Both the position numbers and the translations under genes were made by a program. 64,000 nt of DNA, taken from positions 16,090 through 80,089 of the forward strand of contig JBGSUL010000089.1 of assembly GCA_041736155.1 (NCBI GenBank), in the 5' to 3' direction. The notes below the pieces were generated by a model. It was not told the origin of the DNA and searched no databases. It saw only the letters and a list, made by a program, of their open reading frames with translations. This DNA is from Bdellovibrionales bacterium (lineage in GTDB: Bacteria; Bdellovibrionota; Bdellovibrionia; Bdellovibrionales; JAGQZY01). Positions 21,125 through 43,542 of the stretch are shown here, in pieces; the stretch's first letter is position 1; each line of letters starts with the position of its first letter.

Positions 21125-21134
21125 GGAGTTCTCC

Positions 21135-21602
21135 TTACTCTGCTTTGTCTGCTTTTTTCCAAACAAGATTGTTAGCTATTTTTTTACCGGTGATTTTACC
21201 ATCGCCGCTAGGATTGTCATAAACACTGCCAATAGTGATTTTATAATCGCCCTTGGCTTCCTCTTCGTGGCGGCACACGAGGCCAAATTTCTTTTGCTCA
21301 TGGGGCCTGAAATCAATAGTTCTTTCTCCGGTGTTAAAAAAAGTGTGTTTCACTTCACCATGACGGGAACCCCGGTCACAACTGATCTCGTAAAGATAAA
21401 CAATTATGCCCTTATCACTCTCATTTTTAATGACCATTTCAAAGTCAAATTTTTCTCCCTTGTCTTTGATCCAATTGACCCACATCGAAGCCACACCCGG
21501 TGCCGTCACTGGTTTTTGATCGGTCATGACTTTCTCTGAGGCTTGCGCGCCGGAGATAGTAAAACTGCTCAAAAAGAAAATTCCTAAAAATATATGTTTC
21601 AT
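21135..21602 (-). CDS. Secreted beta-rich hypothetical protein
   Basis: AGGAG RBS; signal peptide ending AQA-S; ATG overlaps the deacetylase stop. Confidence 0.7.
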   Translation of the reverse strand: MKHIFLGIFFLSSFTISGAQASEKVMTDQKPVTAPGVASMWVNWIKDKGEKFDFEMVIKNESDKGIIVYLYEISCDRGSRHGEVKHTFFNTGERTIDFRPHEQKKFGLVCRHEEEAKGDYKITIGSVYDNPSGDGKITGKKIANNLVWKKADKAE

Positions 21603-22285
21603 ACAGACTCCTTGTCTTTTTTCGGTAGAGCTGCAAATTCCCATCCATGCTCGCGTCCTTGTTTTAATAACAGTCTCAGCGTGCACAAAAACGAAAGCTG
21701 ATTCTGCAACTTCTGTCTATCGTGTAAAAGAAGGATGTCACCACTTTGCAGGCGAGGCAATAGCTTTAACACCTGCGACTCTTGCCAGGAAAAAAGCGTG
21801 TCGTAAAAACGACGATTCCATAAATAAAGCGGTGTGTGAATCTGTCGAAGTGCTTGCAACAGTGGCGGACAAACCACACCACTGGGAGAACGAAAACCCA
21901 CCGTTGCTTCCCCGAGGATTTGACTCAAGGCATCCTCACTGCGCAAAATCCAATCACGCAGATGCGGGACTCCTTTAAAAAAGTGTGCGTACGTGTGGTC
22001 CTCGGAGTGATTACCCACTCGATGCCCCTGCTGATGGATTTTTTTTACTAAGGATTTTTCTTGCTGTGCTTTTTGTGCAATTAAAAAAAAAGTAGCCGAG
22101 ACGGAATATTCGCTCAGTACGGCAAGCACTTGCTCAGTAAATACGGCATCCGGACCATCGTCAAAAGTTAAAAACAGAGTGCGCTCATGAACAGGTAAAG
22201 AGCGAATCACTTGTTCATTGCCAAAAAGTTTTTGCGTTATGACATCAAACATGAAGTGCCCAACGGATTTGTGATTTTCCACCAT
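21599..22285 (-). CDS. Polysaccharide deacetylase (CE4/NodB), cluster-associated
   Basis: LTFDDGP, ATFF, GNHSEDH, FRSPSG, ILLLHD. Confidence 0.92.
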   Translation of the reverse strand: MVENHKSVGHFMFDVITQKLFGNEQVIRSLPVHERTLFLTFDDGPDAVFTEQVLAVLSEYSVSATFFLIAQKAQQEKSLVKKIHQQGHRVGNHSEDHTYAHFFKGVPHLRDWILRSEDALSQILGEATVGFRSPSGVVCPPLLQALRQIHTPLYLWNRRFYDTLFSWQESQVLKLLPRLQSGDILLLHDRQKLQNQLSFLCTLRLLLKQGREHGWEFAALPKKDKESV

Positions 22286-23018
22286 TGGGTTTAGCCATAT
22301 TTAAGGGCGATGAGTCTTTGCGAAGCACTGCTTGTGCCAAAGATTCTATCGCTTGTGAGTCGTAAAACTCACCCGTCGCAAATTGCTCACCGACATGATG
22401 AAACGTTTGCGACTGACAATAGTCAATTTGAGGAACCTGCAGAGAACCCAAGGGAGGCAGATTGTGCTGCTGACAAAAACTTTCGTTGGCAAGAACAACC
22501 GCTCCCGCCCCCTGCCCCCAACCCGCATGAGGAAATCCTTCGCCCTTGAGAAAAGAAAAACTTTCGTGAATGCGTGTATCGACACCAACCACGGCCACTA
22601 CTGGACACAACCTTGCGGTCAAAAGCTGCAACGCCATATCTAACGCTTCTTCTCCGCTAAAATAATGATGACTGAGTGTGAAAGTCGGCGCCGTGATGTG
22701 CTCGTGCAGAGATAAAAAACCCGTTGTTGAATTGTGCAGGCTGCTTTGAAAAACAAAAGGACGCGCATGTTTATGGACCGCCCACTCTTTCAAAAATTCA
22801 ATGGTGGAATTAAACTCACCGTGACCCGTGGCCAAGATCAAACTCATCTGTTCCGCAAAAGCGGGAACAGCTTGGCGCAAGGGACCGAGGGCCTCGCTCA
22901 AAACAGCGCTGGCCATTTTCATATTGAGTGTGGCTTTGCGAAATTCGGCGCGTCGATCGAGCTCTTGAACATGAGCGGGATTTAATGCCGCAGCGGCGAT
23001 GATTTGCATTTGCTCCAT
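22245..23018 (-). CDS. Ketosynthase chain-length-factor-like protein
   Basis: KS N-terminal fold features, PFVFQSSLHN motif, no catalytic Cys-His-His; adjacent to a KS. Confidence 0.75.
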   Translation of the reverse strand: MEQMQIIAAAALNPAHVQELDRRAEFRKATLNMKMASAVLSEALGPLRQAVPAFAEQMSLILATGHGEFNSTIEFLKEWAVHKHARPFVFQSSLHNSTTGFLSLHEHITAPTFTLSHHYFSGEEALDMALQLLTARLCPVVAVVGVDTRIHESFSFLKGEGFPHAGWGQGAGAVVLANESFCQQHNLPPLGSLQVPQIDYCQSQTFHHVGEQFATGEFYDSQAIESLAQAVLRKDSSPLNMAKPNGGKSQIRWALHV

Positions 23019-24166
23019 CAGACCCGCCCCAAAACCAGGCTGGCATTGACGCCACCAAAACCCAAAGTGTTTTTTAAAATGATATCCACCGGCTGATGAG
23101 CATGCTCTTTGGCAATGCTCAGATTGATTTGTGGATCGAGATCTTGCAACCCCATGGTGGCAATTTGTGTTTGCTCACAGAGTCCTTGATAACTAATAAC
23201 AGATTCAAAAACTCCCGAAATACCCAGCGTGTGTCCGTGCGACCCTTTTGTGGAGCTAATAAAAGGTCGATGATTTTTTAAAAGATATTTGAGAGCGGCA
23301 CCTTCGGCCAAATCATTGTTAATTGATCCGGTTCCATGCGTGTGCACCCAACCGATTTGCTCTTCACTGATTTTGGCTTTGGCCAACGCACTGGCCATGG
23401 CACGGTACGCTCCTTGGCCTTCGGGGTGAGGCGACGTCATATGGTAGGCGTCCGAAGACAAACCGTACCCAAGCAACTTTGCTTTGGCTGAGCCCTTGTC
23501 TTTCTGTAGACACAAAAAAGCGGCACCTTCCGAAAGATTAATACCTGCACGTTGCTGATCAAAAGGACGGCACGGCTGCGCCGAAAGAAGTTTCAAGGAG
23601 CGAAAACCTTCGACGGTGAGATCACACAAAACTTCGGCACCACCCACCAAACAACGATCTACCTTGCCGGTTTCAATCCACAGACTGGCCAGTGCCAAAG
23701 CTTGGGTGGAGGCCGCACAGGCCGATGCTATTAACGTCCGTGGACCCGTAAATTCTTGGGGAAACCCTAGGTACTCTGGAGCCGAAACACAGAACTCATC
23801 CAAGACGGTTCCCAAAGGATGGTGCTTAAACGGTGGTGATTCGGATTGGTGTTGAAATAAATAGGCGAGCTCTTTTTCCCAAACAATAATTTGCCCCGTC
23901 GTGGTGGCAAAAATAATTCCGTCGCGCGGGGAAAAGTGGGTCCAACCGGCTTCGTGAATCGCTTCACGAGCGGCCCACAGACTCATTTGCAAAGGCCAAC
24001 TTTTTGATTTTAATTCTTGTGCGATAAGATGCCGATCACCGTCGCCCACATAACCGAGACCTTGCTCATTGAGGCCGATCCGTCGCTGATACAGCGCTTG
24101 AAAAAGTTTTTCTTTTCCAAGGCCGAAGCTACTGACCACACCGGCGCCAGCGATCCATATCGACAT
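23018..24166 (-). CDS. Beta-ketoacyl-ACP synthase (KS 1)
   Basis: SACAAS, HGTGS, GHTLG, GFGG. Confidence 0.93.
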   Translation of the reverse strand: MSIWIAGAGVVSSFGLGKEKLFQALYQRRIGLNEQGLGYVGDGDRHLIAQELKSKSWPLQMSLWAAREAIHEAGWTHFSPRDGIIFATTTGQIIVWEKELAYLFQHQSESPPFKHHPLGTVLDEFCVSAPEYLGFPQEFTGPRTLIASACAASTQALALASLWIETGKVDRCLVGGAEVLCDLTVEGFRSLKLLSAQPCRPFDQQRAGINLSEGAAFLCLQKDKGSAKAKLLGYGLSSDAYHMTSPHPEGQGAYRAMASALAKAKISEEQIGWVHTHGTGSINNDLAEGAALKYLLKNHRPFISSTKGSHGHTLGISGVFESVISYQGLCEQTQIATMGLQDLDPQINLSIAKEHAHQPVDIILKNTLGFGGVNASLVLGRV

Positions 24167-24447
24167 TAAGCGCCCTGGGTCGCGATAAAGTCCACCAAAG
24201 TTCCCAAGTTTTGCATGTGAACGCGGGCCATCTCAGCATCGGGAAACTTCAATTTGTACTTTTGCTCAATGGCAATTACAATTTCGAGAATATCCACAGA
24301 GTCCAAACCTAAACCCGTAGCACCAAAAACAGTCTCACGCTGGAAGCTCTCACGGGGAACGTGGCGGAGATTGACCGATTCGATTATTAATCCCACAAGA
24401 TCTTCAAAAAGAATTTGCTTATTTTCAGACATTTCCTGGCTTATCAT
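24166..24447 (-). CDS. Acyl carrier protein 1
   Basis: GLGLDSVDILE. Confidence 0.9.
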   Translation of the reverse strand: MISQEMSENKQILFEDLVGLIIESVNLRHVPRESFQRETVFGATGLGLDSVDILEIVIAIEQKYKLKFPDAEMARVHMQNLGTLVDFIATQGA

Positions 24448-24496
24448 GATCGCTCCACTTGACTCTCGACTTCAGAACCTTTTAATACAGTTAATT

Positions 24497-25120
24497 ATGC
24501 GCAGTCCAATCTTTTTACGTAGTCTTCCCCTTCTGTTTTTCGTTTATGTTGCACATAGCCGAACCCTTGCTGCCACTCAGGTGAGCTCTCAAGAACTTTC
24601 GCAACTCCTTGCCCCCTATACACAAATCCAAAAAATCAGCGCCGACTTTAATCAAAAGAAATTCCTTAAAGATTTAAAAATTGAACTTCTTTCCAACGGC
24701 TCCATGACTTTTGAACGCCCGCAAAATATTCGCTGGACGATCCATAAACCTAGCCCGTTGGAAGTGGCCATTGATAACGACAAAATATCCCTCACCACAC
24801 AAAATGGCGACGCACCGGTGGTGATTCCTTTTTCTCAGATTGGCAAAAATCAAAACACCTCGGGGCTTTCGTTGATGATTCCCTGGCTGGCTGGAGATGC
24901 TGAGCAGATTTTAAAGTCTTTTGAAGTTACGAAAGAGGGAGATCAACTGTTTTCATTGGTTCCGCGGACGTCGGGCTCGCTCTTTCGCTTGATCCAAATT
25001 AAAACAGCTTCGGCAAAAGGCAAAAATCCCGGGTGGATTGAATCGCTCACGCTCAATGAAACATCTGGAGATGCCATCGAAATCCGTTTTAAGGCCGTGA
25101 AAATTGCAAAAACTCGCTAG
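24497..25120 (+). CDS. LolA-like lipid/lipoprotein carrier
   Basis: Signal peptide; SADFNQKK, SNGSMTFERP..IRW...P, ETSGD...IRF. Confidence 0.88.
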   Translation: MRSPIFLRSLPLLFFVYVAHSRTLAATQVSSQELSQLLAPYTQIQKISADFNQKKFLKDLKIELLSNGSMTFERPQNIRWTIHKPSPLEVAIDNDKISLTTQNGDAPVVIPFSQIGKNQNTSGLSLMIPWLAGDAEQILKSFEVTKEGDQLFSLVPRTSGSLFRLIQIKTASAKGKNPGWIESLTLNETSGDAIEIRFKAVKIAKTR

Positions 25121-27272
25121 TTTCTTTTTACTGACTCTGCTTGTCCTTCCTGTTTCTGTCCGTGCCTTGTCGTGGATGGACCGTTCGCATTCGGTATTTT
25201 TGCCAAACAGTCTTAATGCCCAACTCACCATGCAGATGGATTTTCCATTATTCTGGTGGAACTTTGTGATTATCGAACCCCAAGATCAGAAACCGGCTTT
25301 TGCATTGGCCAATGAATTTTGCCAAGCTCTACGTCAGCACACCACCGGCCCCCAAGCGCCCATTAAGAAATCGGCGTGTCCTGATCTGTCTCCACTCCTC
25401 CCCTTAATCACCAGTTGGAGTCAGGATCTTTTTTCTCGTGAGCCGGCCCCCTCGCGTGTCCAGGTGCAAACACAATTTTCGCTCGCGATGACCAAAGCCA
25501 GTCAGCCCTTAGATCGTGCTCTATTGGATATTGTTCGGTATGATCCGATGAATTCGGTGGCGCAGCTACAGAGTCGTTTGTTGGAAAATGTGTCTTTTGG
25601 CTTCACCAAAGAAAATGGTTTTTTTGTCGATAAAACCACAAAGCGAATAATTCTCCCCTTCCAAATGACTTTTCCTCCCAGCGATACACAAACGACCCGC
25701 CAAATAGTCAGCGCCCTTCCACTTCCCCCTACGTTTTCGCTGATCGGCCCGCATTTTTCCACTTTGGAGAATGAAGACAACGTCATGCAAAGTTTGGATC
25801 GCACGACTCTTTTGGGAGTTTTGCTTTTGTTTTTGCAAATTGCTTTGGTGATTTGGAAACGGCGATGGAGTTACTTTCTACTCATTCCTCCAGTACTGGG
25901 CGGAATGCTCGGAGCTACTCTTACGACCGTGGCGATTTATGGATCGATTCATGGACTCACTCTCTCGCTCGGCGCGGGACTGATTGCCCTCGCTCTGGAT
26001 TATGGTTTGCACAGTGCCCATAACATTCGTTGGAAAGGCGTATGGAAAGCCAATCTCTTCGGTTTGCTCACCACGTTTGCGGGGCTCTTGTCGATTGCCC
26101 TCAGTGATATTCCTCTTCTGCAACAAATGATGGTTTTTGCATCCTCAGGTCTGGCACTCTCCTATTTATTTTATTATCTCCTCCATACGGCTTACCCACA
26201 GTGGACTTACGCCAAACCTTTTGCCATCACAATTAAAACCCATAAGCTCAAAACAACCATAGCTTTAGCACTTTCCGTTTTGGGAATCATCTGTGCCATG
26301 GTTTTAAAGCCCGACCTCAATATGCATCAATTCGATGCGCAAAGTCCTGCGACACTGGAAAAATTGCGCTGGCTTTATTCGCATATTCATCAGCGCATGC
26401 CACTCTTCTCGGTGCGTCCTCTTTCCGAAAACACCTGGCGTGAGGCCGAACAACAAAAGACCTGGGCGCAACAGCACTCCCTTTCTGCCAGTAATTTTTC
26501 CTATTTTGTAGCTCCGCCTGAGGAACAGTTGAAGAATCTCGAGTCTTGGAAAAAACTATGTCCTTTAACATTTTTTAACAATACCGAAAAAATTCTTTTT
26601 GATCCTTTTCTCTCTCACTGGCCCTGCGAAAACTTACCTACGGTTTCTTTGCAGTCACCGCCTGAATATATCAAAGACATGGTGACCAAAACCCATTGGC
26701 TCACCAGTTGGTTCCCACAAAATGATCAACATATTAAAGAAATTCAGAGCGAAGATCCACTGGCCCTTTCTTTGCGTGAACTCATTCAAAAATTTCCAGA
26801 GATCTTACAAAAAGAATTGCAGTGGATGTTGCCGCTATCGATTTTAATTTGTCTCGCCTTACTCACGACCTATTTTGGTTTTAGAAAGTGGCGCGAGTGT
26901 ATCATCTGCTTGCTGCCCTTCTTTTGTGGCGGTGGGGCTTACTTTTTTTGTGTGCTTGTTTTTGGTTGGAGTTTTAGTTTTATCAGCGTCGTGGCATTGA
27001 TCATGGTTTTTGGCTTGAGTCTTGATTACGGGATTTTTGCAGCTAACCTGTATCTTCTCGAACGCCCCCCTCCTGCGGAAGGTGTGTGGTCGTGCCTGGC
27101 TCTGTGCGCCCTCATTACTATTCTTGGATTTTTACCTCTCGCCGTTTGCCAACATCCCGTTTTGCGCCATTTAGGACAAACCTTGGTGATGGGTTCTCTC
27201 GGCACTTGGATTGGCACTGCGTGGGGAATCCCCGGAGTGTTTGCATGGCTCAAAAAGGAACCTTTGTTGTGA
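25104..27272 (+). CDS. MMPL/RND-type lipid exporter
   Basis: Two TM bundles with ALDY and GLSLDYGIF motifs, each with a large periplasmic loop. Confidence 0.85.
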   Translation: MQKLASFFLLTLLVLPVSVRALSWMDRSHSVFLPNSLNAQLTMQMDFPLFWWNFVIIEPQDQKPAFALANEFCQALRQHTTGPQAPIKKSACPDLSPLLPLITSWSQDLFSREPAPSRVQVQTQFSLAMTKASQPLDRALLDIVRYDPMNSVAQLQSRLLENVSFGFTKENGFFVDKTTKRIILPFQMTFPPSDTQTTRQIVSALPLPPTFSLIGPHFSTLENEDNVMQSLDRTTLLGVLLLFLQIALVIWKRRWSYFLLIPPVLGGMLGATLTTVAIYGSIHGLTLSLGAGLIALALDYGLHSAHNIRWKGVWKANLFGLLTTFAGLLSIALSDIPLLQQMMVFASSGLALSYLFYYLLHTAYPQWTYAKPFAITIKTHKLKTTIALALSVLGIICAMVLKPDLNMHQFDAQSPATLEKLRWLYSHIHQRMPLFSVRPLSENTWREAEQQKTWAQQHSLSASNFSYFVAPPEEQLKNLESWKKLCPLTFFNNTEKILFDPFLSHWPCENLPTVSLQSPPEYIKDMVTKTHWLTSWFPQNDQHIKEIQSEDPLALSLRELIQKFPEILQKELQWMLPLSILICLALLTTYFGFRKWRECIICLLPFFCGGGAYFFCVLVFGWSFSFISVVALIMVFGLSLDYGIFAANLYLLERPPPAEGVWSCLALCALITILGFLPLAVCQHPVLRHLGQTLVMGSLGTWIGTAWGIPGVFAWLKKEPLL

Positions 27273-28927
27273 AAAAGTCCATACAGCTAGCAAAAAAACT
27301 TTTTTTAGGCGGGATTTTAAGTTTATGGCTTTTGTGGTCGTGTGCGGTGTTGATTTTTCATTGGGGCACACTCCCACAAAAAGATTTCCTCGCTTTGCAA
27401 AAAATTCCGATAACTCATTCAGCACTGTGGATCAAAAGCACTCCCGAATTTCCCATGCAGCATCTGGTTTTAGAGGGGTCGGCTTTTGAGCGCGGTTGGC
27501 TGGCTGGCCAACACACTCAGCATCTCCTATACGAGCAAGAAAAAGAATTGACCACACTTTTAAAAAAAGTTTTCCCCTACCGTTTTTTGTTTCAAACTTT
27601 TGAACTGGCATTGATTCCCCTTTTTAAAGGCACCGAAAAAGATATTCCTCGCGATTTCCTCGAAGAAATGTACGGAGTGTCTCTCGCCACTTCGGCCGAA
27701 TTTGCGCCTTACGCTGAAGCCTTTACTCGTCAATTGGCCTATCACGGCCTCTACGAAGTAGGACAAATGATGGTGGATCAGTTCCATGATGACCGTTTGG
27801 AAAATATGGGCTGCACGGCTGTTCTCGCCCAACAAGAAAACTCGTGGATGGTGGGACGTAACTTTGATTTTGAAGGCGGCCCCACACTCGACGAGAAAAA
27901 AATTCTTAAGTGGGTCTTTCCGGAAGGAAAATATGCCTACCTCTCTGTGATTTGGGCAGGTATGGTGGGTTCCGTCACCGCAGTCAATGAGCATGGCCTG
28001 TACTTATCTATCAACGCCGCGGGCACTCAAGAATTCCGCCGCCAGGGTGTACCCACCACACTTCTTCTCACGCGCGTGATGGACTCCGCCCGAAACAGTG
28101 ACGAAGCTCTTCAGCTATTGCAAAACACACCAACGATTTCATCGGCACTTTTTGTACTTGTCTCCGCCCGCGAAAACAAAGCCTTTCGTGTAGAAAAATC
28201 TCCCAATACCACACGCATAATCCCCATCGCAGAAAATACCGCTATCACCAATCATTTTATCAGTGCTGATTGGGATCACGACCCCATCAATCTCTTTCGC
28301 AAGGAAGAACTCACCAGTCAGTATCGACAAGCGCGCGGGCAAGAGCTTGCGCACGCACTGACTCCACAATTTCAAGAAAAAGAGATGGCTGAGATTTTGC
28401 GCGACAAACACGGTTTGCACAATGCACCCCGCTCTCTCGGGCATCGCCAAAGTATTGATTCTTTGATCGCCAACCATTCGGTGATTTACAATGGTGAAAA
28501 AGAGCACATTTATGTCAGTGTAGGCCCCCATCTGATCAACGACTATTTAGGTTACGATCTGAAAGCGTCTTTTCAACAACGTCGTCCGCAATTTGTGCAG
28601 AAAATATCTGCCGATCCTGAGGTGACTCCCGAAATTTATGAAAACTACCTAGGGTTTCAAAGACAGCTCGAGGAATTGGCCCAGCACTTACACACGAATA
28701 AAGATGTTGGCTGGCTCGCCACCTCCCCTCTCTTGCGAGAAATGCAACAAAGAGTGCAAACATACCCACAGCTAGAAAATTCGACCTACAATGAACTCCT
28801 TGGTCAACTCGCCCGTCGGCAAAATCAAAAGGACCAAGCTAAAAAATATTTTCTACGGGCTTTACAACTTGTTCCCGCCTACAAACGCGAGCAAACTTAT
28901 ATAACAGAGGTGCTTCATGCTTTATAA
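27269..28927 (+). CDS. C45-family (Ntn-hydrolase) acyltransferase with C-terminal TPR-like tail
   Basis: MG-CT autocleavage site, GRNFDF, NEHGL, TNHF; GTG start overlaps the MMPL stop. Confidence 0.87.
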   Translation: MKKSIQLAKKLFLGGILSLWLLWSCAVLIFHWGTLPQKDFLALQKIPITHSALWIKSTPEFPMQHLVLEGSAFERGWLAGQHTQHLLYEQEKELTTLLKKVFPYRFLFQTFELALIPLFKGTEKDIPRDFLEEMYGVSLATSAEFAPYAEAFTRQLAYHGLYEVGQMMVDQFHDDRLENMGCTAVLAQQENSWMVGRNFDFEGGPTLDEKKILKWVFPEGKYAYLSVIWAGMVGSVTAVNEHGLYLSINAAGTQEFRRQGVPTTLLLTRVMDSARNSDEALQLLQNTPTISSALFVLVSARENKAFRVEKSPNTTRIIPIAENTAITNHFISADWDHDPINLFRKEELTSQYRQARGQELAHALTPQFQEKEMAEILRDKHGLHNAPRSLGHRQSIDSLIANHSVIYNGEKEHIYVSVGPHLINDYLGYDLKASFQQRRPQFVQKISADPEVTPEIYENYLGFQRQLEELAQHLHTNKDVGWLATSPLLREMQQRVQTYPQLENSTYNELLGQLARRQNQKDQAKKYFLRALQLVPAYKREQTYITEVLHAL

Positions 28928-29429: not shown

Positions 29430-29638
29430 TGCGAACCTTTTTCTGGTCCTTCCTTGCCGCCTGCTTACTGCTGAGCAATGGGATTATTTTATACCAACGC
29501 TGGTGGTTGATCCAGGTCCCGGGACAGGTGCCGGTGTCTCTGGTCTACTCAACTCTTCTAATAAATGGTGGGTTAAGTTATTATTTTTTTCGTCGTGCAC
29601 GAAGCGCGGCAATGTGGACCAAAAAGGGTAAAAGTTAA
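29426..29638 (+). CDS. Possible small two-TM protein overlapping the opposite-strand gene
   Basis: GAGGAG and ATGA overlap with the upstream stop; two hydrophobic helices and a basic tail. Confidence 0.35.
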   Translation: MMRTFFWSFLAACLLLSNGIILYQRWWLIQVPGQVPVSLVYSTLLINGGLSYYFFRRARSAAMWTKKGKS

Positions 29639-32329: not shown

Positions 32330-32426
32330 AAAACATCTTCAAAGAGAATTGTGTTGATTTACCAGCCATCTCATTATTAAAGTCGCACTTTAAATGTTAT
32401 TTCTAAAGGATTTCAAGGGGTTTGAT

Positions 32427-34714: not shown

Positions 34715-35928
34715 AAGTTTTTGTCACCGGCATGGGATGTATCTCCTCTCTCGGCAATACGCCCGACGAACTCTACGCGTCTCTGCGCGGACAAAGTAGC
34801 GCATCGCAGTTTTATCCTGAGTGGCAAAAATTAAATGGTTTACACGCGCATTTAGGAGCGCCCGCCCATTCTTACGATGTAAAAAGTCTCCCGCGCACAG
34901 TGCGCAGAACTATGTCCCGTATGTCGGAAATGGCCAGCCTCGCCACTTTGCAAGCCCTGCAACAAGCTCAACTCACACTGACGCCTTCTTCGCGTACACT
35001 TTTAATTTTAGGATCCACCACCGGCAGTCCCGAAACCATGCAAGCTTACTTTAAGTTAATGGAAGATCGTGGCGGCCCCGAAGGGCAAGTCTCCACCTCT
35101 TTTTTTAAAATCATGAATCACTCGGTGGCTGCCAACGTCGGCGCCGCTTTGCAATTCAAAGGCCCCTACCTCTCGCCGAGCACCGCCTGCTCCACCTCTT
35201 CGCAAGCCATGATTTTAGGTTGGGAGCTATTGCAAACCGGACTCTATGATTGCGTGATTGCTGGCGGTGCAGATGAGATGAGCCCCCTCACGTCGGCGAT
35301 TTTTGATATTGTTTTTGCCGCCTCGAGAAAGTTCAACGAAACTCCCCAACAAAGTCCGCGCCCTTTTGATCAAGAGCGCGATGGTTTGGTGGTCTCCGAA
35401 GGTGCCGGCGTAGTTGTTCTTGAAACCGAAGACCATATGCTCAAAAGAAAAACCCGAGCCCTGGCAGAGCTGGCTGGGGGTGCCTATGTGGCCGATTGCA
35501 GTCATATGAGCCAAAGTCATAAAGAAGCCATGCTCATCACCATGAACGAGGCCCTTAACCGTGCGAAATTACCGGTTCATTCTGTGGATTACGTCAATGC
35601 CCACGCCACCGGCACTATGCAAGGCGACATTGAGGAAGCTCAGGCCATTGGCGCCATCTTTGGCTCGCAAGTGCCTATCAGTAGCCTCAAAGGACATATG
35701 GGACATAGTCTTGCCGCCTGCGGGGCTCTTGAAGCTATTGCTTGCATAAAAATGATGGAAATGGCAGAAATAATCCCTACAAAAAACCTGCACAAAATCG
35801 ATCCATTTTGTGGCGGTGCTATGTTGTTAAAAGAAGGACCTCCACTCAAACAAAAGGTTACGACGGTGATGAGTAACAATTTTGCTTTCGGTGGTATGAA
35901 CACAAGTTTTGTCCTTAAAACTGTTTAA
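34711..35928 (+). CDS. Beta-ketoacyl-ACP synthase (KS 2, FabF-like)
   Basis: STACSTS, NAHATGT, GHSLAACG, NNFAFGG. Confidence 0.94.
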   Translation: MKVFVTGMGCISSLGNTPDELYASLRGQSSASQFYPEWQKLNGLHAHLGAPAHSYDVKSLPRTVRRTMSRMSEMASLATLQALQQAQLTLTPSSRTLLILGSTTGSPETMQAYFKLMEDRGGPEGQVSTSFFKIMNHSVAANVGAALQFKGPYLSPSTACSTSSQAMILGWELLQTGLYDCVIAGGADEMSPLTSAIFDIVFAASRKFNETPQQSPRPFDQERDGLVVSEGAGVVVLETEDHMLKRKTRALAELAGGAYVADCSHMSQSHKEAMLITMNEALNRAKLPVHSVDYVNAHATGTMQGDIEEAQAIGAIFGSQVPISSLKGHMGHSLAACGALEAIACIKMMEMAEIIPTKNLHKIDPFCGGAMLLKEGPPLKQKVTTVMSNNFAFGGMNTSFVLKTV

Positions 35929-35944
35929 AGTTGGAGTGCTTGCC

Positions 35945-36223
35945 ATGACCGAAAAAGAGATCGTTGCCAAGATCAACGACGTTCTTTGTACTGGATTCGA
36001 ATTAGACAGCGCACTGTTAAAACCAGAGGCCCGTTTAAAAGAAGATCTCCAATTAGATAGTTTAGATGCCGTCGATATGCTTGTTTATCTCGAAGAAAAT
36101 TTTAAAATCCAAGTGGAAGGTGAACGCCTCACCGAAATCAAAGTTCTGGGTGATGTTTACAAACTGGTGACTGACGTTTTATTGAGTACGAAGGCCGATA
36201 CGCAATTGAGCGAAAACATCTAA
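35945..36223 (+). CDS. Acyl carrier protein 2
   Basis: DLQLDSLDAVD; GGAG RBS. Confidence 0.92.
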   Translation: MTEKEIVAKINDVLCTGFELDSALLKPEARLKEDLQLDSLDAVDMLVYLEENFKIQVEGERLTEIKVLGDVYKLVTDVLLSTKADTQLSENI

Positions 36224-36490
36224 GTTATTTGTGTCTTTCCAAACAACCTGCCACAAGTTTTGTGTAGTGTTTATGAGTGTAACTTCCAAGTTAATGGTCG
36301 AATTCGGCCGCACAGGTTGTGAAAACTTGGCATCCACCACTTCCTGCAGTTCCATATTTTGTGGGGCTTGCGATCTTTTTAAAAAATCCACACTGAGATC
36401 TATAATGGCCACCGCTGGAAGTACCGGGTTATGAGGAAAGTGTCCGTCAAAATAAAAAAGATCGGCGGGAATAGTGATTTGCGTGGTCAT
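36179..36490 (-). CDS. Hotdog-fold dehydratase, ApeI-like
   Basis: YFDGHFPHNPVLPAV, KFSQPVRP. Confidence 0.85.
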   Translation of the reverse strand: MTTQITIPADLFYFDGHFPHNPVLPAVAIIDLSVDFLKRSQAPQNMELQEVVDAKFSQPVRPNSTINLEVTLINTTQNLWQVVWKDTNNLDVFAQLRIGLRTQ

Positions 36491-36525
36491 ATCACCTTTC
36501 ATAACAAATCCTTATTGGGCTGTCT

Positions 36526-37647
36526 ATGTGGCTCGTAGCTTACGGCGCCGCCACCTCCGCTGGCCCCACGTCCACGCATCTGTGGAATCAGCTCGCACGC
36601 GGTGCCAATTCGTCATGCCCGATTCCCTTGCAGCTTCTTAAAAACAAACCAGATGTTCTCCCTGATTATCGTATTCATCTGCGCCTGGATCTGCCCGTCA
36701 CTCTGACCCATCGGCAGCGTCTTTTGCACCTACTGCAAGAAGCGTGGAGCGAAGTGTGCGGAAAAATTTCGCCGCAGGATTTTCATGCGCGCATGGGAAT
36801 TATTTTTACCAGCACCAAAGGGTTTGCCGAAGATTTTGTGTGGAAATCAGATTCTTTTGTCGATGGTCTTACTCCGCTTCTGCACGATTTTATCAAAGAG
36901 CAGAAACTGGCGCCGCAGGAAACGCTGGTCCTCAGCGAAGCTTGCTCATCCGTTGCCGCCGCCGTGACCATGGCCGAAGAGTGGTTGAATTTAGAGATGG
37001 TAGATCATGTATTGGTGTTGAGTTGTGATAGCATCGGTGAGTTTGTGATTCGCGGTTTTCACAGTTTACACGCTCTCACTCCCCGCTCTCAAGCTCAGCC
37101 CTTTGATAAAGAGCGGCTTGGGCTACAACTGGGAGAAGCGGCGGCGGTGTTGTTGCTGTCAAAAAAGATTCCTGGTCCATCGATGATTTCGGCAAAAATC
37201 TGCTGCGAGGGCGTGGCCGCCACTCGGCCCGATCGTCATGGGCGCAGCTTGCAAACAGCGTTGAGCCAGGTGATTGGCGACAAGGCGCTGCCGGTGCTGA
37301 TCATCGCCCATGGTACCGGAACGGTGATCAACGATGTCACCGAAGACTCGGTTTTTCAAAATATCTATAGCCAAAAATCAGCACCCCCACCGTCTGTCAC
37401 CTCTTTGAAGTGGAGTATTGGCCATACCTTGGCGGTCAGCTGCGCGCTGGATATTATTGCTGCGCAAGAATGTCTTACCCATGGACGCGCCTTTGCACTC
37501 GCGCAAACCCAAACGGTGGATGAGACTTTTCGCTCGAATTATCTTTTAAAAACCTGGGAAAAGCCCCTTTCTGCTGTTTTGGTTTCTTCACTAGGCTTCG
37601 GCGGCGTCCATGGTGGCGTTTACCTGCAAAGGAGCCCTGATGTTTAA
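36526..37647 (+). CDS. Beta-ketoacyl-ACP synthase (KS 3, divergent)
   Basis: STKG, SEACSS, AHGTGT, GHTLA, GFGG. Confidence 0.88.
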   Translation: MWLVAYGAATSAGPTSTHLWNQLARGANSSCPIPLQLLKNKPDVLPDYRIHLRLDLPVTLTHRQRLLHLLQEAWSEVCGKISPQDFHARMGIIFTSTKGFAEDFVWKSDSFVDGLTPLLHDFIKEQKLAPQETLVLSEACSSVAAAVTMAEEWLNLEMVDHVLVLSCDSIGEFVIRGFHSLHALTPRSQAQPFDKERLGLQLGEAAAVLLLSKKIPGPSMISAKICCEGVAATRPDRHGRSLQTALSQVIGDKALPVLIIAHGTGTVINDVTEDSVFQNIYSQKSAPPPSVTSLKWSIGHTLAVSCALDIIAAQECLTHGRAFALAQTQTVDETFRSNYLLKTWEKPLSAVLVSSLGFGGVHGGVYLQRSPDV

Positions 37648-38098
37648 CCTCACTCAGTGGCAACATCCGCTAGAAACTTTACCCACCTCGCCTCCTGAGT
37701 GGGCCTCTTTGGTGGAGCGCTGGTACCAGCTCGACGCTCCTTCCTATCTGCTTTGCCAAAGCTACTGGGAGTCTAAAAGCAAGCTGACAGCCCCCCCTGA
37801 CCTGATCCTCCTCAATAGCCCACAAACCTCCTTTGTGACCGACAGGGCCTTCTGTCAAACTCTCAGCCCTTCGAAGTTTGTTCACACCTTGCCCAACGTA
37901 CGGAGCTCGGCCCTTTTACAGCTTCTGGAGTGGCGAGGCCCTCTCTTTTCTTTTGTTGACGAGAAGGCAAAAATTTTAAAGTATGCAGAAAATGTTTTAA
38001 ACAAGACTCCGGTGAGTCGAATTTGGGTTCTCCAAGTAATGGAACAGCCTGTGTTGAAAGTAGATTGGTGTGTCTATGAGAAAAAAAATACTCATTGA
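37640..38098 (+). CDS. Short KS/chain-length-factor-like protein
   Basis: SPSKFVHTLPN motif; translationally coupled to KS 3. Confidence 0.6.
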   Translation: MFNLTQWQHPLETLPTSPPEWASLVERWYQLDAPSYLLCQSYWESKSKLTAPPDLILLNSPQTSFVTDRAFCQTLSPSKFVHTLPNVRSSALLQLLEWRGPLFSFVDEKAKILKYAENVLNKTPVSRIWVLQVMEQPVLKVDWCVYEKKNTH

Positions 38099-39668
38099 TA
38101 ATCAACGACTAACGTTGAAGAGTTTTATTGATTATTCCGTTGCTGCGACCGACGATTCCACTGATTCAGAAGTGTCTTTTTCTCCGACAACTTTAGAAAA
38201 TGCCCAAGCGTCGCACATGCAACTCCTTCAACTCATCGAAAACAACACACCTCTTTATGGCGTCACTACCGGTTTTGGCGACAGCAGTCAGCGCAGTCTG
38301 CATGCCCATCAATCCGAAGAGTTGCAGAAAAATTTAATCAATTATCTTTCTTGCGGCACGGGTCCCTACTTATCAGAAGAAGTGTGTCGAGCTATTTTAT
38401 TAGCGCGACTGAAATCTCTCAGTCGAGGTTACTCGGGCATTCGCCCACAACTTCTTGAACAAATGCGTTTGTATCTCAATAACAATTGGATTCCCGCCAT
38501 CCGCTCCGAAGGTTCGCTCGGCGCCAGCGGTGACTTAGTACCGTTGGCGGCCATCGCGCAGTGTTTGCAGGGACAAGGTACGGTCTATGTGCAAGGAAAA
38601 CTCACCGACGTTGCGCCTTTGCTCAAACAACAAAACCAAACCGGCATTGCACTTTTTGCCAAAGAAGGTTTGGCTCTGGTGAACGGTACATCGGCTATGG
38701 TCGGAGCCGCGAGCATTAACTATTCCCATATCCGTCGTTTGTTCGATCTTCATATGGTGGCCTCCACGTGGACCTGTCTCGCCTTGGGCGGACGCCGAGA
38801 AGCCTTTGGTCCGCTGGTCAATTCCGTAGCGGCTCAGCACTCTGGCCAAGCTCTGGTGGCAAAAACCATTTCTACTTTTCTCGAACAACAAAATTATCAA
38901 AATAAACCGTTGCAAACGATTGCCCGTGTGAATGATCTGTTGGAACAACCGGTACAGGATAAATACTCTTTGCGATGTGTTCCGCAAATTCTCGGACCCG
39001 TGCAAGAAACCCTGGCGCTGTGTGAGCGTTGGCTAGAAGACGAACTCAACTCCACCAGTGACAATCCACTGATTTCTGCCGAAGGTGATTTAGCTAACGG
39101 AGGAAATTTTTATGGCGGATACATTGCGCACGCCATGGACTATCTTAAGATCTGTCTTGTGCAAATGGCCGATTTGGCCGATCGCCAGTTGATTCAAATT
39201 ATGGATGAAAAATCCAACCGTGGTCTGCCTTCTAATCTGGTCGATTGGGATGGACTTCCTCCGAGTGATCGACATTTGCATCATGGTCTCAAAGGACTGC
39301 ATCAGAGTGCTTCAGCCATCACTTCGGAAATTGCCGCACTCAGTTTAGCAAACAGTATTTTTTCTCGATCTGCCGAAAGCCACAACCAAGATAAAGTGAG
39401 TTTGGGCATGAGTGCCGCTAATCAGTGCCAGTGGATGATTGAAAAATCCTACACAGTACTCACGCTGCATCTGATTTGTCTCGCGCAAGCTTTAGATCTG
39501 CGCGGTGTTCAACTGACGAGTGCACCTCTGCGCGACGTTTATGAAGTCATTCGCAAGCATGTGCCCTTCTGCAAAAAGGATACAGCTCTGCAAGAACCCA
39601 TTCTCAACCTTACAAACCATTTAAAAACATTTAATTTAATTCAAGGAATACAAAATGAAAAACTTTGA
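38076..39668 (+). CDS. MIO-dependent aromatic amino acid ammonia-lyase (HAL/PAL/TAL family)
   Basis: YGVTTGFG, GASGDL, KEGLALVNGT, QDKYSLRC, DNP, GGNF, HNQDKVSLG. Confidence 0.95.
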   Translation: MRKKILIDNQRLTLKSFIDYSVAATDDSTDSEVSFSPTTLENAQASHMQLLQLIENNTPLYGVTTGFGDSSQRSLHAHQSEELQKNLINYLSCGTGPYLSEEVCRAILLARLKSLSRGYSGIRPQLLEQMRLYLNNNWIPAIRSEGSLGASGDLVPLAAIAQCLQGQGTVYVQGKLTDVAPLLKQQNQTGIALFAKEGLALVNGTSAMVGAASINYSHIRRLFDLHMVASTWTCLALGGRREAFGPLVNSVAAQHSGQALVAKTISTFLEQQNYQNKPLQTIARVNDLLEQPVQDKYSLRCVPQILGPVQETLALCERWLEDELNSTSDNPLISAEGDLANGGNFYGGYIAHAMDYLKICLVQMADLADRQLIQIMDEKSNRGLPSNLVDWDGLPPSDRHLHHGLKGLHQSASAITSEIAALSLANSIFSRSAESHNQDKVSLGMSAANQCQWMIEKSYTVLTLHLICLAQALDLRGVQLTSAPLRDVYEVIRKHVPFCKKDTALQEPILNLTNHLKTFNLIQGIQNEKL

Positions 39669-40839: not shown

Positions 40840-42105
40840 GTGAGCGGATTTTCCGTTCACCTTTATAAGGGCTATCATTCGCCGCAACTGCCCACGCTGC
40901 TTACATCCTCGCTGGAGAAGCGCGAATTGTTTATTTTTTGCCCACCGTCACTCAACGATTTTTCGTTTGTGCAACTTCTCCCAGCGGGTGAGCTGGTTCT
41001 CCATGGTGAATGGACTGCGCTGGAAAAACAACACCTGAGCGAGGTGCCTCGGCAGACACCTCCTTACCCACAAACTCCGATTTTGGGGCTCTTTACCAGC
41101 GGCACCAGTTCACAAGGTTTAAAACTGGTGATGTATTCCATGGAAAACATCGAAGCCTCTCTTGCTGGAGTTCTGTCTTTTTTTGATGTGACAAGAATCA
41201 AAACTGTTTTTTGCTACCCACATCCTTTTCACACCTTTGGACTTCTGCTCGGTTACGTCAATGCGCTGATTCACCGCTGGAACTTTGTCACCCTTGACGG
41301 AAAATACTCCTCCTCCTTTCATCAAAAGTGGTTGGAAACTGTGAGCGAAAACACTCTCACTCTTGGTACCCCCACCCATTTTATTGATTTGCTTAAATTT
41401 GTACGAGAAACCAAGAGTTCGCCACACCCTTCTTATTCATGTATCGTCGGTGGCGCACCGGTGCCGCCCTCACTCTGGCAAAACATTCATCGGCAACTTT
41501 TAATTCATCAACCTTCGGTGGGCTATGGCTGTACCGAGGCTTCGCCAGCGCTGACCCACTTGCCGCCGGGAGTTTGCCCTGCCAATGACGGCCATGTGGG
41601 ATTTGCTATTCCCCAGGTACAAATGGAATTAGCTCAGGATGGATTTTTATTTCGTGGACCTAATGTTTGCACGGCTTTTATTCAAAACGGTGTGTTGGAA
41701 TTTCCTAGCGAGATTTTTATTCGCGATCAGCTACAACTTCATGCCGATGGCAGTTTTTCGTTTTTAGGGCGCAGTGATCTGGTTCTGAACCGCGGCGGCG
41801 AAAAATATTTACTGGAAGAAATCGAGGCCTTTTTATTAAAGACGCTCGATCTGCGAGTGATTGCTCTCGCCACGCCCCATCCACGCCTCGGTCATGATTT
41901 AGGACTTTTGATTGAAGAAAAAAAAGGATACGATCCCACCATGCACGGAAATATTCTCGAAGCTTTAATGACTCGCTACAAAGCGCGGTTTGATGATCGC
42001 TACTTTTTAAAAGTGGCAAGTCTGCCCACCAATCCGTCGGGCAAAATCCATCGCCGTGAAGCGCAGCAGATTTTCCACAGCCAGCTGCATGGAGGTACCG
42101 TATGA
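40840..42105 (+). CDS. AMP-forming acyl/aryl ligase (ANL superfamily)
   Basis: FTSGTSS..LK, HTFG, GYGCTE, GRSD...NRGGEK, LPTNPSGK. Confidence 0.85.
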   Translation: MSGFSVHLYKGYHSPQLPTLLTSSLEKRELFIFCPPSLNDFSFVQLLPAGELVLHGEWTALEKQHLSEVPRQTPPYPQTPILGLFTSGTSSQGLKLVMYSMENIEASLAGVLSFFDVTRIKTVFCYPHPFHTFGLLLGYVNALIHRWNFVTLDGKYSSSFHQKWLETVSENTLTLGTPTHFIDLLKFVRETKSSPHPSYSCIVGGAPVPPSLWQNIHRQLLIHQPSVGYGCTEASPALTHLPPGVCPANDGHVGFAIPQVQMELAQDGFLFRGPNVCTAFIQNGVLEFPSEIFIRDQLQLHADGSFSFLGRSDLVLNRGGEKYLLEEIEAFLLKTLDLRVIALATPHPRLGHDLGLLIEEKKGYDPTMHGNILEALMTRYKARFDDRYFLKVASLPTNPSGKIHRREAQQIFHSQLHGGTV

Positions 42106-42551
42106 AACCCCTGTCGAGCGCTGAACTTTACCCCTACTTGACCCATCGCCCACCGATGGTATGGATTGACTCGGTCGTGGCCGTGGAAGAAGCCGCCGGT
42201 GCGACCTTAACGCAACTTAAGCCGGATGGATATTACAGCACGGACGGCGTTTTTCGTCCCAGTTCTTTTGTTGAATTGATCGCACAGAGTTATGCCTTTA
42301 CTTCTTTGGTGTATCTTCTTAACCAAAATACTCCACCGACATCGCAAAAAAATTATTTAGTGGCCATTAAAGATTTTAAGGTTCTTGCCACCAATCTCCC
42401 GCAAGCTCCGCAAGAAATCCGCACTGAAGTGCAACGCAAGAGAGTTTTTGGTCCCATCACTTTTATCTCCGGTCAATGCTATTGGGTCGATCAAAATCTC
42501 AATCGCCAACTCCTCGCCACCGGCGACTTGAAAGTCTTTAGCGAACAATAA
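42102..42551 (+). CDS. Hotdog-fold dehydratase partner, ApeP-like
   Basis: HRPPMVWID, ELIAQS. Confidence 0.8.
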   Translation: MKPLSSAELYPYLTHRPPMVWIDSVVAVEEAAGATLTQLKPDGYYSTDGVFRPSSFVELIAQSYAFTSLVYLLNQNTPPTSQKNYLVAIKDFKVLATNLPQAPQEIRTEVQRKRVFGPITFISGQCYWVDQNLNRQLLATGDLKVFSEQ

Positions 42552-43470: not shown

Positions 43471-43542
43471 GTTAACATTTCCTTGGTTGTCATTTTGCAT
43501 ACCTGCTATATATTCGGCCCTAAGAATTTATATGGAGCATTT

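Follow-up and report, generated by a model that had tools for sequence, protein, structure and literature searches.

A stretch of 64,000 nucleotides from the genome of a Bdellovibrionales bacterium (assembly GCA_041736155.1, contig JBGSUL010000089.1; this whole stretch is called the window below) carries, at positions 21135-42551, a block of 22 genes that is likely to be an intact, chromosomally embedded flexirubin-type cluster of the aryl-polyene (APE) family, from which the dialkylresorcinol (DAR) module is absent. Clusters of the aryl-polyene/flexirubin kind have been described as the biosynthetic cluster family with the widest distribution in bacteria (bioRxiv 10.1101/2020.12.19.423268). 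What differs here from the known systems is that flexirubin-type machinery for the polyene, its anchoring and its export occurs without a resorcinol module; the pathway family is well known and this is not a new kind of system. All 22 open reading frames (ORFs) are open, as judged from the ORF listing together with Pfam and NCBIfam profile searches, which were run on 25 ORFs. The genome measures 3.21 Mb in 126 contigs and is 99.67% complete. The neighbours on both sides are housekeeping genes, rimP, nusA, infB, truB and pnp on one side and mreC, PBP2 and rodA on the other; the cluster is therefore chromosomal.

An earlier reading of the window, made from the sequence only, had listed the enzymes of a block at 21599..42551, and every item of that inventory was found again at its coordinates. 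The genes of the cluster are given below with their strand and profile matches (KS, ketosynthase; CLF, chain-length factor; ACP, acyl carrier protein; aa, amino acids).

21135..21686 (-): hyp183, a 183-aa secreted protein at the cluster edge, with a signal-peptide-like N-terminus following an internal Met
21599..22285 (-): polysaccharide deacetylase (NodB/PgdA-type); Pfam Polysacc_deac_1, 94 bits
22245..23018 (-): CLF1, ApeC-type chain-length factor, 257 aa; Pfam PF13723 (Ketoacyl-synt_2), 38.5 bits
23018..24166 (-): KS1, ApeO-type; Pfam match; NCBIfam PRK09185, 281.6 bits (cut-off 407); 38% identity to E. coli ApeO
24166..24447 (-): ACP1, ApeE-like; PP-binding domain with DSV serine motif; NCBIfam PRK09184, 51 bits (cut-off 70); 33% identity to E. 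coli ApeE
24254..25120 (+): LolA-like periplasmic carrier, true start probably an internal ATG at 24446 or 24497; Pfam LolA, 49 bits; NCBIfam LolA2_flexi, 52 bits (cut-off 125)
25104..27272 (+): resistance-nodulation-division (RND)/MMPL-like inner-membrane transporter, weakly ApeM-like; NCBIfam HAE3, BstA and HpnN at E 1e-7 to 5e-5, all far under their cut-offs
27086..28927 (+): C45-family Ntn acyltransferase/hydrolase, membrane anchor at the N-terminus and TPR at the C-terminus, start probably ATG 27245; NCBIfam C45_proenzyme, 146.8 bits (cut-off 85, exceeded); Pfam AAT, 77 bits
28917..29429 (+): lip170, a 170-aa predicted lipoprotein with the lipobox-like LSPLSC, found at the same position in 4 relatives
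29484..31634 (-): GT2-DUF2062-Lip_A_acyltrans fusion, ApeJ-like; Pfam domains at residues 7-162, 233-350 and 440-673
31631..32329 (-): PlsC-type acyltransferase, ApeD-like; Pfam Acyltransferase, 72.6 bits; 27% identity to E. coli ApeD over 114 aa
32394..33164 (+): FabG-type ketoreductase, ApeQ/FlxB-like; NCBIfam FlxB, 272 bits (cut-off 340); 39% identity to E. coli ApeQ and 41% to Fluviicola FlxB
33161..34714 (+): CrtI/CrtISO-family FAD oxidoreductase; Pfam Amino_oxidase; NCBIfam carot_isom and CrtD far under their cut-offs
34711..35928 (+): KS2, ApeR-type; NCBIfam PRK09116, 366.5 bits (cut-off 470); 37% identity to E. coli ApeR
35909..36223 (+): ACP2, ApeF-like, start probably ATG 35945; PP-binding domain; NCBIfam PRK05350, 57 bits (cut-off 65); 39% identity to E. 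coli ApeF
36179..36502 (-): ApeI-like hot-dog dehydratase; Pfam ApeI-like, 32 bits (cut-off 28.5), and FabA, 37.6 bits; 33% identity to E. coli ApeI
36526..37647 (+): KS3, divergent third ketosynthase; Pfam KS N- and C-terminal domains
37610..38098 (+): 162-aa candidate minimal ApeC-type CLF, overlapping the KS3 gene; assigned by profile-profile match, predicted fold and motif
38070..39668 (+): 4-methylideneimidazole-5-one (MIO)-type aromatic amino-acid ammonia-lyase or aminomutase; Pfam Lyase_aromatic, 455 bits
39655..40839 (+): flavin-dependent halogenase of the carrier-protein-substrate type; Pfam Trp_halogenase, 105.7 bits
40840..42105 (+): short ANL adenylating ligase, ApeH-like and not FlxY-like; Pfam AMP-binding, 76 bits; 27% identity to E. 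coli ApeH across 137 aa at the C-terminus (E 2e-6)
42102..42551 (+): ApeP-like hot-dog dehydratase; Pfam 16.9 bits, under the cut-off of 27; hhalign to E. coli ApeP 94.5%, E 7e-8

The aryl-polyene core

In a MAFFT alignment with the genome's own FabF, the Cys-His-His residues are present in KS1, KS2 and KS3, while in CLF1 they are replaced by Tyr, Gln and Lys. The best match of KS1 in the Protein Data Bank (PDB) is AbApeO (7f28_B), those of KS2 are PpApeR (4ewg) and AbApeR (7f27), and a profile built from ten CLF sequences found XdApeC (6qsp_B, E 6.8e-34) and AbApeC (7f28_A) as its top matches, the identities of these entries being those given in the available part of PMC8358021. A ketosynthase phylogeny, which had been proposed in the sequence-only reading, was inferred by maximum likelihood from 21 chosen rows, leaving out the KS sequences of three relatives (G281, G159 and G324) and the split KS1 of a fourth (G385). 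KS2 clustered with E. coli ApeR at 100/98 support, KS1 fell into an unresolved group with ApeO and two Fluviicola ketosynthases, and KS3 formed a long-branch clade of its own adjoining Fluviicola KS-b.

The core of the APE family has been defined as apeO, apeR, apeE, apeF, apeC, apeI, apeP, apeQ and apeM (bioRxiv 10.1101/2020.12.19.423268), and the ape cluster of E. coli CFT073 served as our reference. The present cluster holds an ApeO-type KS with a Cys-less ApeC-type CLF, an ApeR-type KS, two ACPs that both keep the PP-binding serine, ApeI/ApeP-type dehydratases and ApeQ. No tblastn match in the genome at E <= 1e-3 was obtained with ApeB, ApeK, ApeA or ApeG. Judged by these sequence relationships, the cluster is a member of the APE family in which KS1-CLF1 is ApeO-ApeC-like and KS2 is ApeR-like, which agrees with the earlier proposal of an APE/flexirubin-family type II polyketide synthase (PKS) cluster in Bdellovibrionota; the named relatives are metagenome-assembled genomes (MAGs) of that phylum. 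That reading had also held that a gene-for-gene match to a characterised cluster would speak against it, and none was seen with either reference compared, the E. coli CFT073 APE cluster or the Fluviicola flexirubin cluster described below.

A second ketosynthase pair

KS3 is more divergent. Its PDB matches are weak (63-69 bits at best) and it shares 28% identity with its Fluviicola counterpart. The grouping of KS3 with Fluviicola KS-b in the tree was not relied on and was flagged as a possible long-branch artefact, hence the link between the two rests on the shared partner protein and on gene order. This partner is the 162-aa ORF, which has no Pfam match. Its Fluviicola counterpart is a 202-aa protein encoded after a ketosynthase of the flexirubin cluster (26% identity, E 2e-7), and the motif SPxxFVxTLPN occurs in both.

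A seven-sequence profile of the 162-aa protein matched the CLF family profile (hhalign 92.8%, E 4e-7), and the same profile found nothing under E 0.3 among the PDB sequences. The AlphaFold2 model of the protein reached a mean predicted local distance difference test score (pLDDT) of 78.5 and a predicted TM-score (pTM) of 0.75, and its top Foldseek matches were AbApeC 7f28 (E 1.5e-6, query TM-score (TMq) 0.64-0.67) and XdApeC 6qsp_B. On the basis of the profile-profile match, the predicted fold and the SPxxFVxTLPN motif, the 162-aa ORF is assigned as a CLF. When KS3 was modelled in complex with it, the interface score (ipSAE) was 0.94, compared with 0.02 for the best of three controls; the mark used for this score had been reached by 58 of 80 solved complexes and by 2 of 110 mismatched pairs. 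Across three runs the contacts agreed to at least 97% and the partner kept a pLDDT of at least 85, with partner residues 111-117 facing KS3 residues 133-139, beside the catalytic Cys140. Since ApeO-ApeC complexes have already been solved, this result may reflect likeness to them and is no proof of binding. Taken from sequence and models, KS3 and the 162-aa protein are a predicted second KS-CLF pair of the ApeC type, common to flexirubin clusters, and the cluster as modelled is made of two ApeO/ApeC-type pairs and one ApeR-type enzyme.

Of 7999 scored candidates, 628 are relatives of KS3 at E <= 0.001, and the closest apart from KS3 itself is 53% identical. Those with names belong to MAGs of Bdellovibrionaceae, Bdellovibrionales and Pseudobdellovibrionaceae and, at 32-33% identity, to two Bdellovibrio sp. 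isolates.

Starter and tailoring enzymes

The lyase carries the Ala-Ser-Gly MIO triad, and its "motif 2" residue is Gln, while the genome's own HutH, a genuine one encoded elsewhere adjoining hutU, has Glu. In the available part of PMC3992019, Gln at this position marks tyrosine and phenylalanine ammonia-lyases (TAL/PAL) and Glu marks histidine ammonia-lyases (HAL). This residue and the nearest solved relatives of the enzyme (AdmH, SgTAM and RsTAL) argue for an aromatic substrate, the sequence being compatible with either Tyr or Phe and with either a lyase or a mutase. The selectivity switch reads Tyr-Leu in six of six Bdellovibrionota lyases and Ser-His in Fluviicola FlxA and in HutH.

It is unlikely that the product is instead a non-aryl or beta-amino-acid-primed polyene lipid, with the MIO enzyme working as an aminomutase or on another amino acid. 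AdmH and SgTAM are aminomutases, the Tyr-Leu switch differs from the His of known TALs, the Phe of PALs and the Ser-His of FlxA, and all NCBIfam lyase equivalogs stay under their cut-offs (e.g. FlxA 354/700 bits and HutH 375/539). Gln at motif 2, however, is the mark of aromatic substrates, and the order lyase-halogenase-ligase together with a carrier-type halogenase parallels the initiation of flexirubin synthesis, as far as both are covered by the part of PMC3992019 available to us.

The motifs GxGxxG, WxWxIP (as SWTWIIP) and FxxPxFSxG were read in the translation of the halogenase gene. We take GxGxxG, WxWxIP and FxxPxxSxG to be the motifs of flavin-dependent halogenases. The nearest PDB entries are PltA (191.7 bits), ChlB4, Mpy16 (5buk), 3nix and CmlS; by its closest relatives PltA, ChlB4 and Mpy16, the enzyme would be of the type that acts on carrier-bound substrates. 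Of the 14 related loci on which both of its neighbours lie, 11 have the halogenase and three (L049, L055 and L064) are without it; a FlxJ-like methyltransferase is carried instead by L049 and by the G385 locus. The Gly-Cys nucleophile of the C45 enzyme is kept in eight of eight aligned sequences, Fluviicola included, each of which has an N-terminal hydrophobic anchor, and this anchor suggests a periplasmic, membrane-tethered C45 domain.

Flexirubin counterparts and the missing resorcinol module

As flexirubin reference we used a locus of Fluviicola taffensis (G401:C1, about 446-485 kb) that came from a scan of species genomes by CrtI-like alignment. It is a canonical flexirubin cluster, because the NCBIfam models for FlxA (819 bits, cut-off 700), FlxB (392/340), FlxY (560/520), LolA2 (150/125), DarB (648/550), DarG (195/170) and DarH (473/300) exceed their cut-offs there, FlxJ (456/560) staying under. 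About 18 of the 22 genes of our cluster have counterparts in it, at identities of 23-41%: FabG 41%, ACP2 37%, KS1 32-37%, lyase and ACP1 35%, deacetylase 34%, halogenase 33%, KS2 32%, the CrtI-like enzyme 29% (with one of the two genes of this kind there), C45 28% and KS3, as given above. The Fluviicola cluster also has a PF13723 CLF, a FabA/ApeI-like protein, LolA and an RND-PlsC fusion, and the ApeP-like protein matches a 161-aa protein of the same cluster (hhalign 96.5%). Common to the two clusters are thus the lyase, the halogenase-like flavin-dependent enzyme, the CrtI-like, C45 and deacetylase genes, LolA, the weakly recognised RND transporter, GT2-DUF2062, a lipid-A-type acyltransferase, FabG, hot-dog dehydratases, an ApeR-like KS and a KS with a small SPxxFVxTLPN partner, and the ACP-KS-CLF-deacetylase sub-operon is identical in order. 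In the available part of PMC3992019, the deacetylase, acyltransferase, LolA, glycosyltransferase and exporter are named as possible flexirubin export genes.

The sequence-only reading had described a mix of APE and flexirubin genes. The flexirubin part of this stands, C45, CrtI-like enzyme, deacetylase, halogenase and SPxxFVxTLPN partner all being found in a canonical flexirubin cluster, but the whole is better described as a flexirubin-type cluster minus its resorcinol module than as a mixture. Unlike the Fluviicola locus, the cluster here has no DarA, DarB, DarG, DarH, ABC transporter or third KS-CLF-ACP set, and neither the FlxJ methyltransferase nor a 4HBT thioesterase. Its ligase is ApeH-like where that of Fluviicola is FlxY/PaaK-like; its GT2 and acyltransferase are fused as in ApeJ, while the Fluviicola counterparts are separate genes (GT2-DUF2062, 38%, and Lip_A_acyltrans, 23%); its lyase has a different switch; and the FlxA, FlxB and LolA2 models stay under their cut-offs (354/700, 272/340 and 52/125). 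Because of these flexirubin-specific differences, the lack of Dar genes among them, the product should not be a polyene-resorcinol ester.

The DarA and DarB genes that had been reported as missing from the window are missing from the whole genome as well, as far as tblastn and profile hidden Markov models (HMMs) with a working control can tell. For 13 of the 34 Fluviicola proteins, including FlxJ, FlxY, the DarA candidate, DarG, DarH and LolA2, tblastn found no match at E <= 1e-4 anywhere in the genome, and with DarB it reached only the housekeeping FabH at 19-21% identity. DarA, DarG and DarH were not found by tblastn with the closer, same-phylum queries of G159 either. The DarB HMM gave 32 bits against a cut-off of 550, the best StlD/DarB hit had an E of 1.6e-8, and the DarH and DarG HMMs gave nothing, while as positive control the DarH model exceeded its cut-off in Fluviicola (G401) and in two relatives (G056 and G159) and found none in our genome (G000) or in G132. 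No DAR genes lie on any of 51 loci (L017-L032 and L034-L068). The methyltransferases FlxJ and ApeB had no tblastn match in the genome either, and the statement that the window has no recognisable methyltransferase or thioesterase was borne out by domain searches of its remaining large ORFs, in which neither domain occurs. The ApeP-like protein was considered as the missing thioesterase and rejected, with an hhalign value to ApeK of 0.1%.

In our sample of 401 Bdellovibrionota genomes the StlD/DarB model passes its cut-off in seven, and by comparison of the lists six of these hold a CLF1 homolog. Of the 35 genomes that bear the cluster, our own included, 29 have no DarB over the cut-off, among them the complete single-contig genomes G313, G319 and G385; four of the 29 (G090, G184, G281 and G400) have sub-cut-off matches in longer ORFs.

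As an observation of its own, some Bdellovibrionota carry a complete DarA/DarB/DarG/DarH-ABC-ACP-KS-CLF module in the gene order of Bacteroidota, on a contig apart from the polyene cluster. In G159 (G159:C144:5001-21000) it consists of a hyp183-like gene, a DarA-like gene, DarB, DarG, DarH, two ABC genes, ACP, KS and CLF, in an order that matches Fluviicola, and G056 (C67) is similar. Such DAR-bearing Bdellovibrionota may make true flexirubin-type esters outside Bacteroidota. StlD/DarB-like ketosynthases of 336-370 bits, under the cut-off, were also seen in ORFs of about 610-640 aa, almost double the usual length (G298, G250, G226, G156, G340, G361, G379, G400, G064, G356 and G184), so that several genomes of the order may carry a fused version.

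These modules give substance to a quite unlikely explanation, namely that our genome has an ordinary flexirubin pathway whose resorcinol module lies at a second locus, as in G159 and G056, and fell into an unassembled gap. DarB exceeds its cut-off on a non-cluster contig in six of the 35 cluster-bearing genomes, the full G159 module stands on a separate contig, and its first gene is a homolog (38% identical) of hyp183, the edge gene of our cluster, in an assembly of 126 contigs. Against this, the genome is nearly complete by the estimate given above, neither of the two query sets nor the control-validated HMMs found DarA, DarG or DarH, and the 29 genomes without DarB over the cut-off include three complete ones.

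Very unlikely is a flexirubin analogue in which an alkylresorcinol from a type III PKS locus of the same genome (C106:3382-8532) replaces the dialkylresorcinol made by DarAB. This locus has a DpgA-like PKS (161 bits, cut-off 425) followed by a FAD enzyme of the geranylgeranyl-reductase family, a 215-aa protein and an MMPL/HAE3 transporter, and resembles alkylresorcinol or alkylpyrone operons. However, the PKS occurs in 59 of the 401 genomes with no co-occurrence (5/35 cluster-bearing against 54/366 others), its locus is on a different contig from the cluster, and no DarH-type transferase was found in the genome. The alkylresorcinol was thus set aside as a stand-in for the DAR part on these counts and kept as a low alternative.

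Distribution and history

The cluster is not a one-off, its architecture being kept throughout the phylum. A CLF1 homolog occurs in 35 of the 401 genomes, six of the 35 having a DAR module at a second locus; neither of the two same-genus genomes has such a homolog. The best CLF1 identity is 36% over most of the length, with up to 47% in a shorter alignment. At 35-60% identity the gene order recurs across Bdellovibrionota; it was seen on nine contigs of eight genomes and in 32 of 80 named loci, where the CrtI-like enzyme is 35-49% identical. Gene content was counted on these 32 loci (L034-L064 and L068), the other 48 being left uncounted; three of the 32 are titled Deltaproteobacteria, WWE3 and Polyangiaceae. 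KS3 and its partner are present in 16 of 17 counted loci holding both ACP2 and the lyase, and C45 in 17 of 17 holding both the transporter and the GT2 fusion. A survey counts expressed APE clusters in Bdellovibrionota MAGs, according to the available part of PMC13635244, and in those parts of the literature on Bdellovibrio with aryl polyene or flexirubin that were available, surveys count APE clusters and no study of such a cluster was found.

It is hardly credible that the cluster is a silent or decaying flexirubin remnant that lost its resorcinol half and makes no product, since, although the DAR module, methyltransferase and thioesterase are missing and presence within the genus is patchy, 22 of 22 ORFs are open, the catalytic residues of the KSs, ACPs, C45, lyase and halogenase are intact, and the DAR-less form is the majority state, its conservation between families (35-60% identity) speaking for selection.

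Both same-genus genomes have syntenic flanks, with 7-10 kb of unrelated genes filling the gap. A tRNA-Leu(caa) at 18410-18496 borders a variable region of about 27 kb (18497-46028). Integration linked to this tRNA was considered and rejected, as no repeat of at least 12 nt of the tRNA-Leu 3' part lies inside 18600-47000 and no integrase was seen. The GC content of the cluster, 47.0% against 44.4% for the genome, is reached by only 1.9% of 314 genome windows of equal size. Its proteins are nearer to those of other families than to those of a genome of the same family: the CrtI-like enzyme and halogenase are 47% and 59% identical to those of G132, against 35% and 44% for the same-family G400. 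The gaps in the sister genomes, the GC content and the closer similarity to other families favour transfer within the phylum. The cluster was thus probably gained by transfer within Bdellovibrionota, with loss in the sister species as the alternative.

Comparison with aryl-polyene lipids and xanthomonadins

Beside the flexirubin clusters, the closest known systems are the APE clusters of Gammaproteobacteria, those of E. coli CFT073 (apeA-R), Xenorhabdus doucetiae and Acinetobacter baumannii. Both they and the present cluster have ApeO-ApeC, ApeR, ApeE/F, ApeI/P, ApeQ, the ApeJ fusion, an ApeD-type acyltransferase, an ApeH-type ligase, LolA and, by a weak match here, an RND transporter, and the likely end product in both is a lipid-anchored pigment of the outer membrane. 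The two halves of our GT2 fusion are 33% and 23% identical to E. coli ApeJ. The transporter gives a weak match to E. coli ApeM (26-27% identity, only 167-206 aa aligned); NCBIfam TIGR00921 scores 30 bits on it (cut-off 352), it has no Pfam match, and in relatives the gene occupying this position shares 26-38% identity with it. The lipoprotein lip170 matches E. coli ApeN (DUF3261) weakly, at an hhalign value of only 30%, and is a possible LolB/ApeN analogue. The ApeI-like gene lies on the opposite strand at the same position in relatives also.

In contrast to the APE clusters, ours has in addition a second KS-CLF pair, the lyase, the halogenase, the CrtI-like enzyme, C45, the deacetylase and hyp183, and is without the ApeB methyltransferase, the ApeK thioesterase, ApeA and ApeG. 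Its starter would be made from an amino acid inside the cluster, whereas the E. coli cluster is without a lyase gene. Xanthomonadins, which are brominated, and arcuflavin (a xanthomonadin-dialkylresorcinol hybrid of Azoarcus sp. BH72) belong to the same polyene family, lipid- or resorcinol-esterified and sometimes halogenated; our cluster has a lyase instead of their XanB2-type starter enzyme. According to the available part of PMC3949708, xanthomonadin-type clusters start from 3- or 4-hydroxybenzoate by way of this chorismate-utilising enzyme. The APEs of E. coli and Xenorhabdus are built on a 4-hydroxyphenyl starter (bioRxiv 10.1101/2020.12.19.423268).

The product of the gammaproteobacterial cluster is an aryl polyene esterified to GalNAc-phosphate-glycerol, with a PKS-made conjugated C26:5 acyl chain in addition; the roles proposed were attachment of the conjugated chain for ApeD, addition of the sugar and the polyene for ApeJ, and lipid export for ApeM, ApeL and ApeN (bioRxiv 10.1101/2020.12.19.423268). 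The envelope glycolipid with chains from two KS-CLF pairs that the sequence-only reading had suggested thus follows known chemistry, a glycolipid anchor and two PKS chains having been described for APE lipids in the same preprint.

Proposed product and pathway

As we infer from homology, the most likely product is a possibly halogenated aryl-polyene carried on a glycophospholipid of the aryl-polyene lipid (APEL) type, because ApeD-, ApeJ-, ApeL- and weakly ApeM-like genes are kept and resorcinol genes are not present. The chromophore would start from an amino-acid-derived (hydroxy)cinnamate, is probably halogenated and would be elongated by three ketosynthase systems, and the deacetylase suggests a free aminosugar at some stage.

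Read from the domains, the homologies and the intact catalytic residues (those of the KSs, the C45 nucleophile, the MIO triad and the halogenase motifs), the chemistry could run as follows. The MIO ammonia-lyase would convert tyrosine to 4-coumarate or phenylalanine to cinnamate, and the ApeH-like ANL ligase would activate the acid and load it onto an ACP, where the PltA/CmlS-type halogenase may act on the carrier-bound aryl group. KS2, KS1-CLF1 and KS3 with the minimal CLF would then elongate with malonyl units, while FabG and the ApeI/ApeP dehydratases turn the keto groups into double bonds, so that ACP1 or ACP2 would come to bear a polyene; the example of APE lipids suggests that a second conjugated acyl chain may be made too. 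The PlsC-type acyltransferase, the ApeJ-like fusion and the deacetylase would attach the chain or chains to a glycero-phospho-aminosugar lipid, the acceptor being no resorcinol. Finally, transport of the lipid toward the outer membrane, or its remodelling on the way, may fall to the RND-like transporter, LolA, the lipoprotein and the C45 enzyme, which would be periplasmic and membrane-anchored.

Several points weigh against this account of the cluster and its product. The APE-linked models PRK09185, PRK09116, PRK09184 and PRK05350 and the NCBIfam flexirubin equivalogs are all under their cut-offs, for which reason orthology can be claimed at the family level only. The Tyr-Leu switch and the aminomutases among the nearest relatives of the lyase mean that the starter could be cinnamate or a beta-amino acid. 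A DAR module of 8 kb could sit in a gap of the 126-contig assembly, and six relatives do keep theirs on another contig. The anchor model comes from one preprint, on a gammaproteobacterial cluster without a deacetylase, C45 or CrtI-like gene, the assignments of the transporter and the lipoprotein are weak, and beyond the domain assignments every step of the pathway is one that we infer.

Boundaries and neighbouring genes

The boundaries were mapped by searching nine contigs from eight further genomes of the phylum with the cluster proteins, using tblastn and blastp. The right edge of the block given in the sequence-only reading was retained, but the left edge moves from 21599 to 21135, as the gene for the 183-aa secreted protein (21135-21686, minus strand) accompanies that of the deacetylase in four relatives (G132, G212, G281 and G338). 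The family of hyp183 gave nothing in Pfam, in NCBIfam or, at >=0.9, in the protein atlas. Neither the beta-barrel ORF on its left side (20366-21166) nor the pair of ORFs beyond the right edge (42592-45549) is co-conserved with the cluster in the nine-contig comparison.

The two right-hand ORFs, at 42592-43470 and 43483-45549, encode secreted proteins of 292 and 688 aa, the larger one Cys-rich toward its C-terminus, with no family in Pfam or NCBIfam for either; a 26%-identical homolog of the 292-aa protein lies within the gap region of G271. Farther along the window, 49219-51066 (-) encodes a subtilase whose Peptidase_S8 domain comes with a fervidolysin-like prodomain and is fused to PilZ at the C-terminus; it is unusual to see a protease of secreted type joined to a domain that binds cyclic di-GMP. 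The ORF at 57749-59656 (+) encodes a response-regulator receiver domain fused to a DnaJ J-domain and TPR repeats.

Implications

The C45 enzyme, the CrtI-like enzyme, the deacetylase and the second KS-CLF pair are kept phylum-wide without the resorcinol module, so they would serve the polyene or the lipid-anchor half of the pathway and not the resorcinol ester. The DAR-less lineage thus offers a simpler system for assigning the roles of these four. Perhaps, as a tentative and rather doubtful idea, most of the cluster-bearing Bdellovibrionota make an undescribed class of pigment, a Tyr- or Phe-primed and often halogenated polyene built by three KS systems and carried on a deacetylated aminosugar-phospholipid, possibly by N-acylation after the deacetylase has acted, with the periplasmic C45 enzyme finishing the molecule. 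If this is true, the polyene and resorcinol halves of flexirubin would be separable modules that lineages combine or drop, and the outer membrane of predatory bacteria would bear an antioxidant lipid of a type peculiar to them. The cluster predicts a pigment lipid in Bdellovibrio-like predators.

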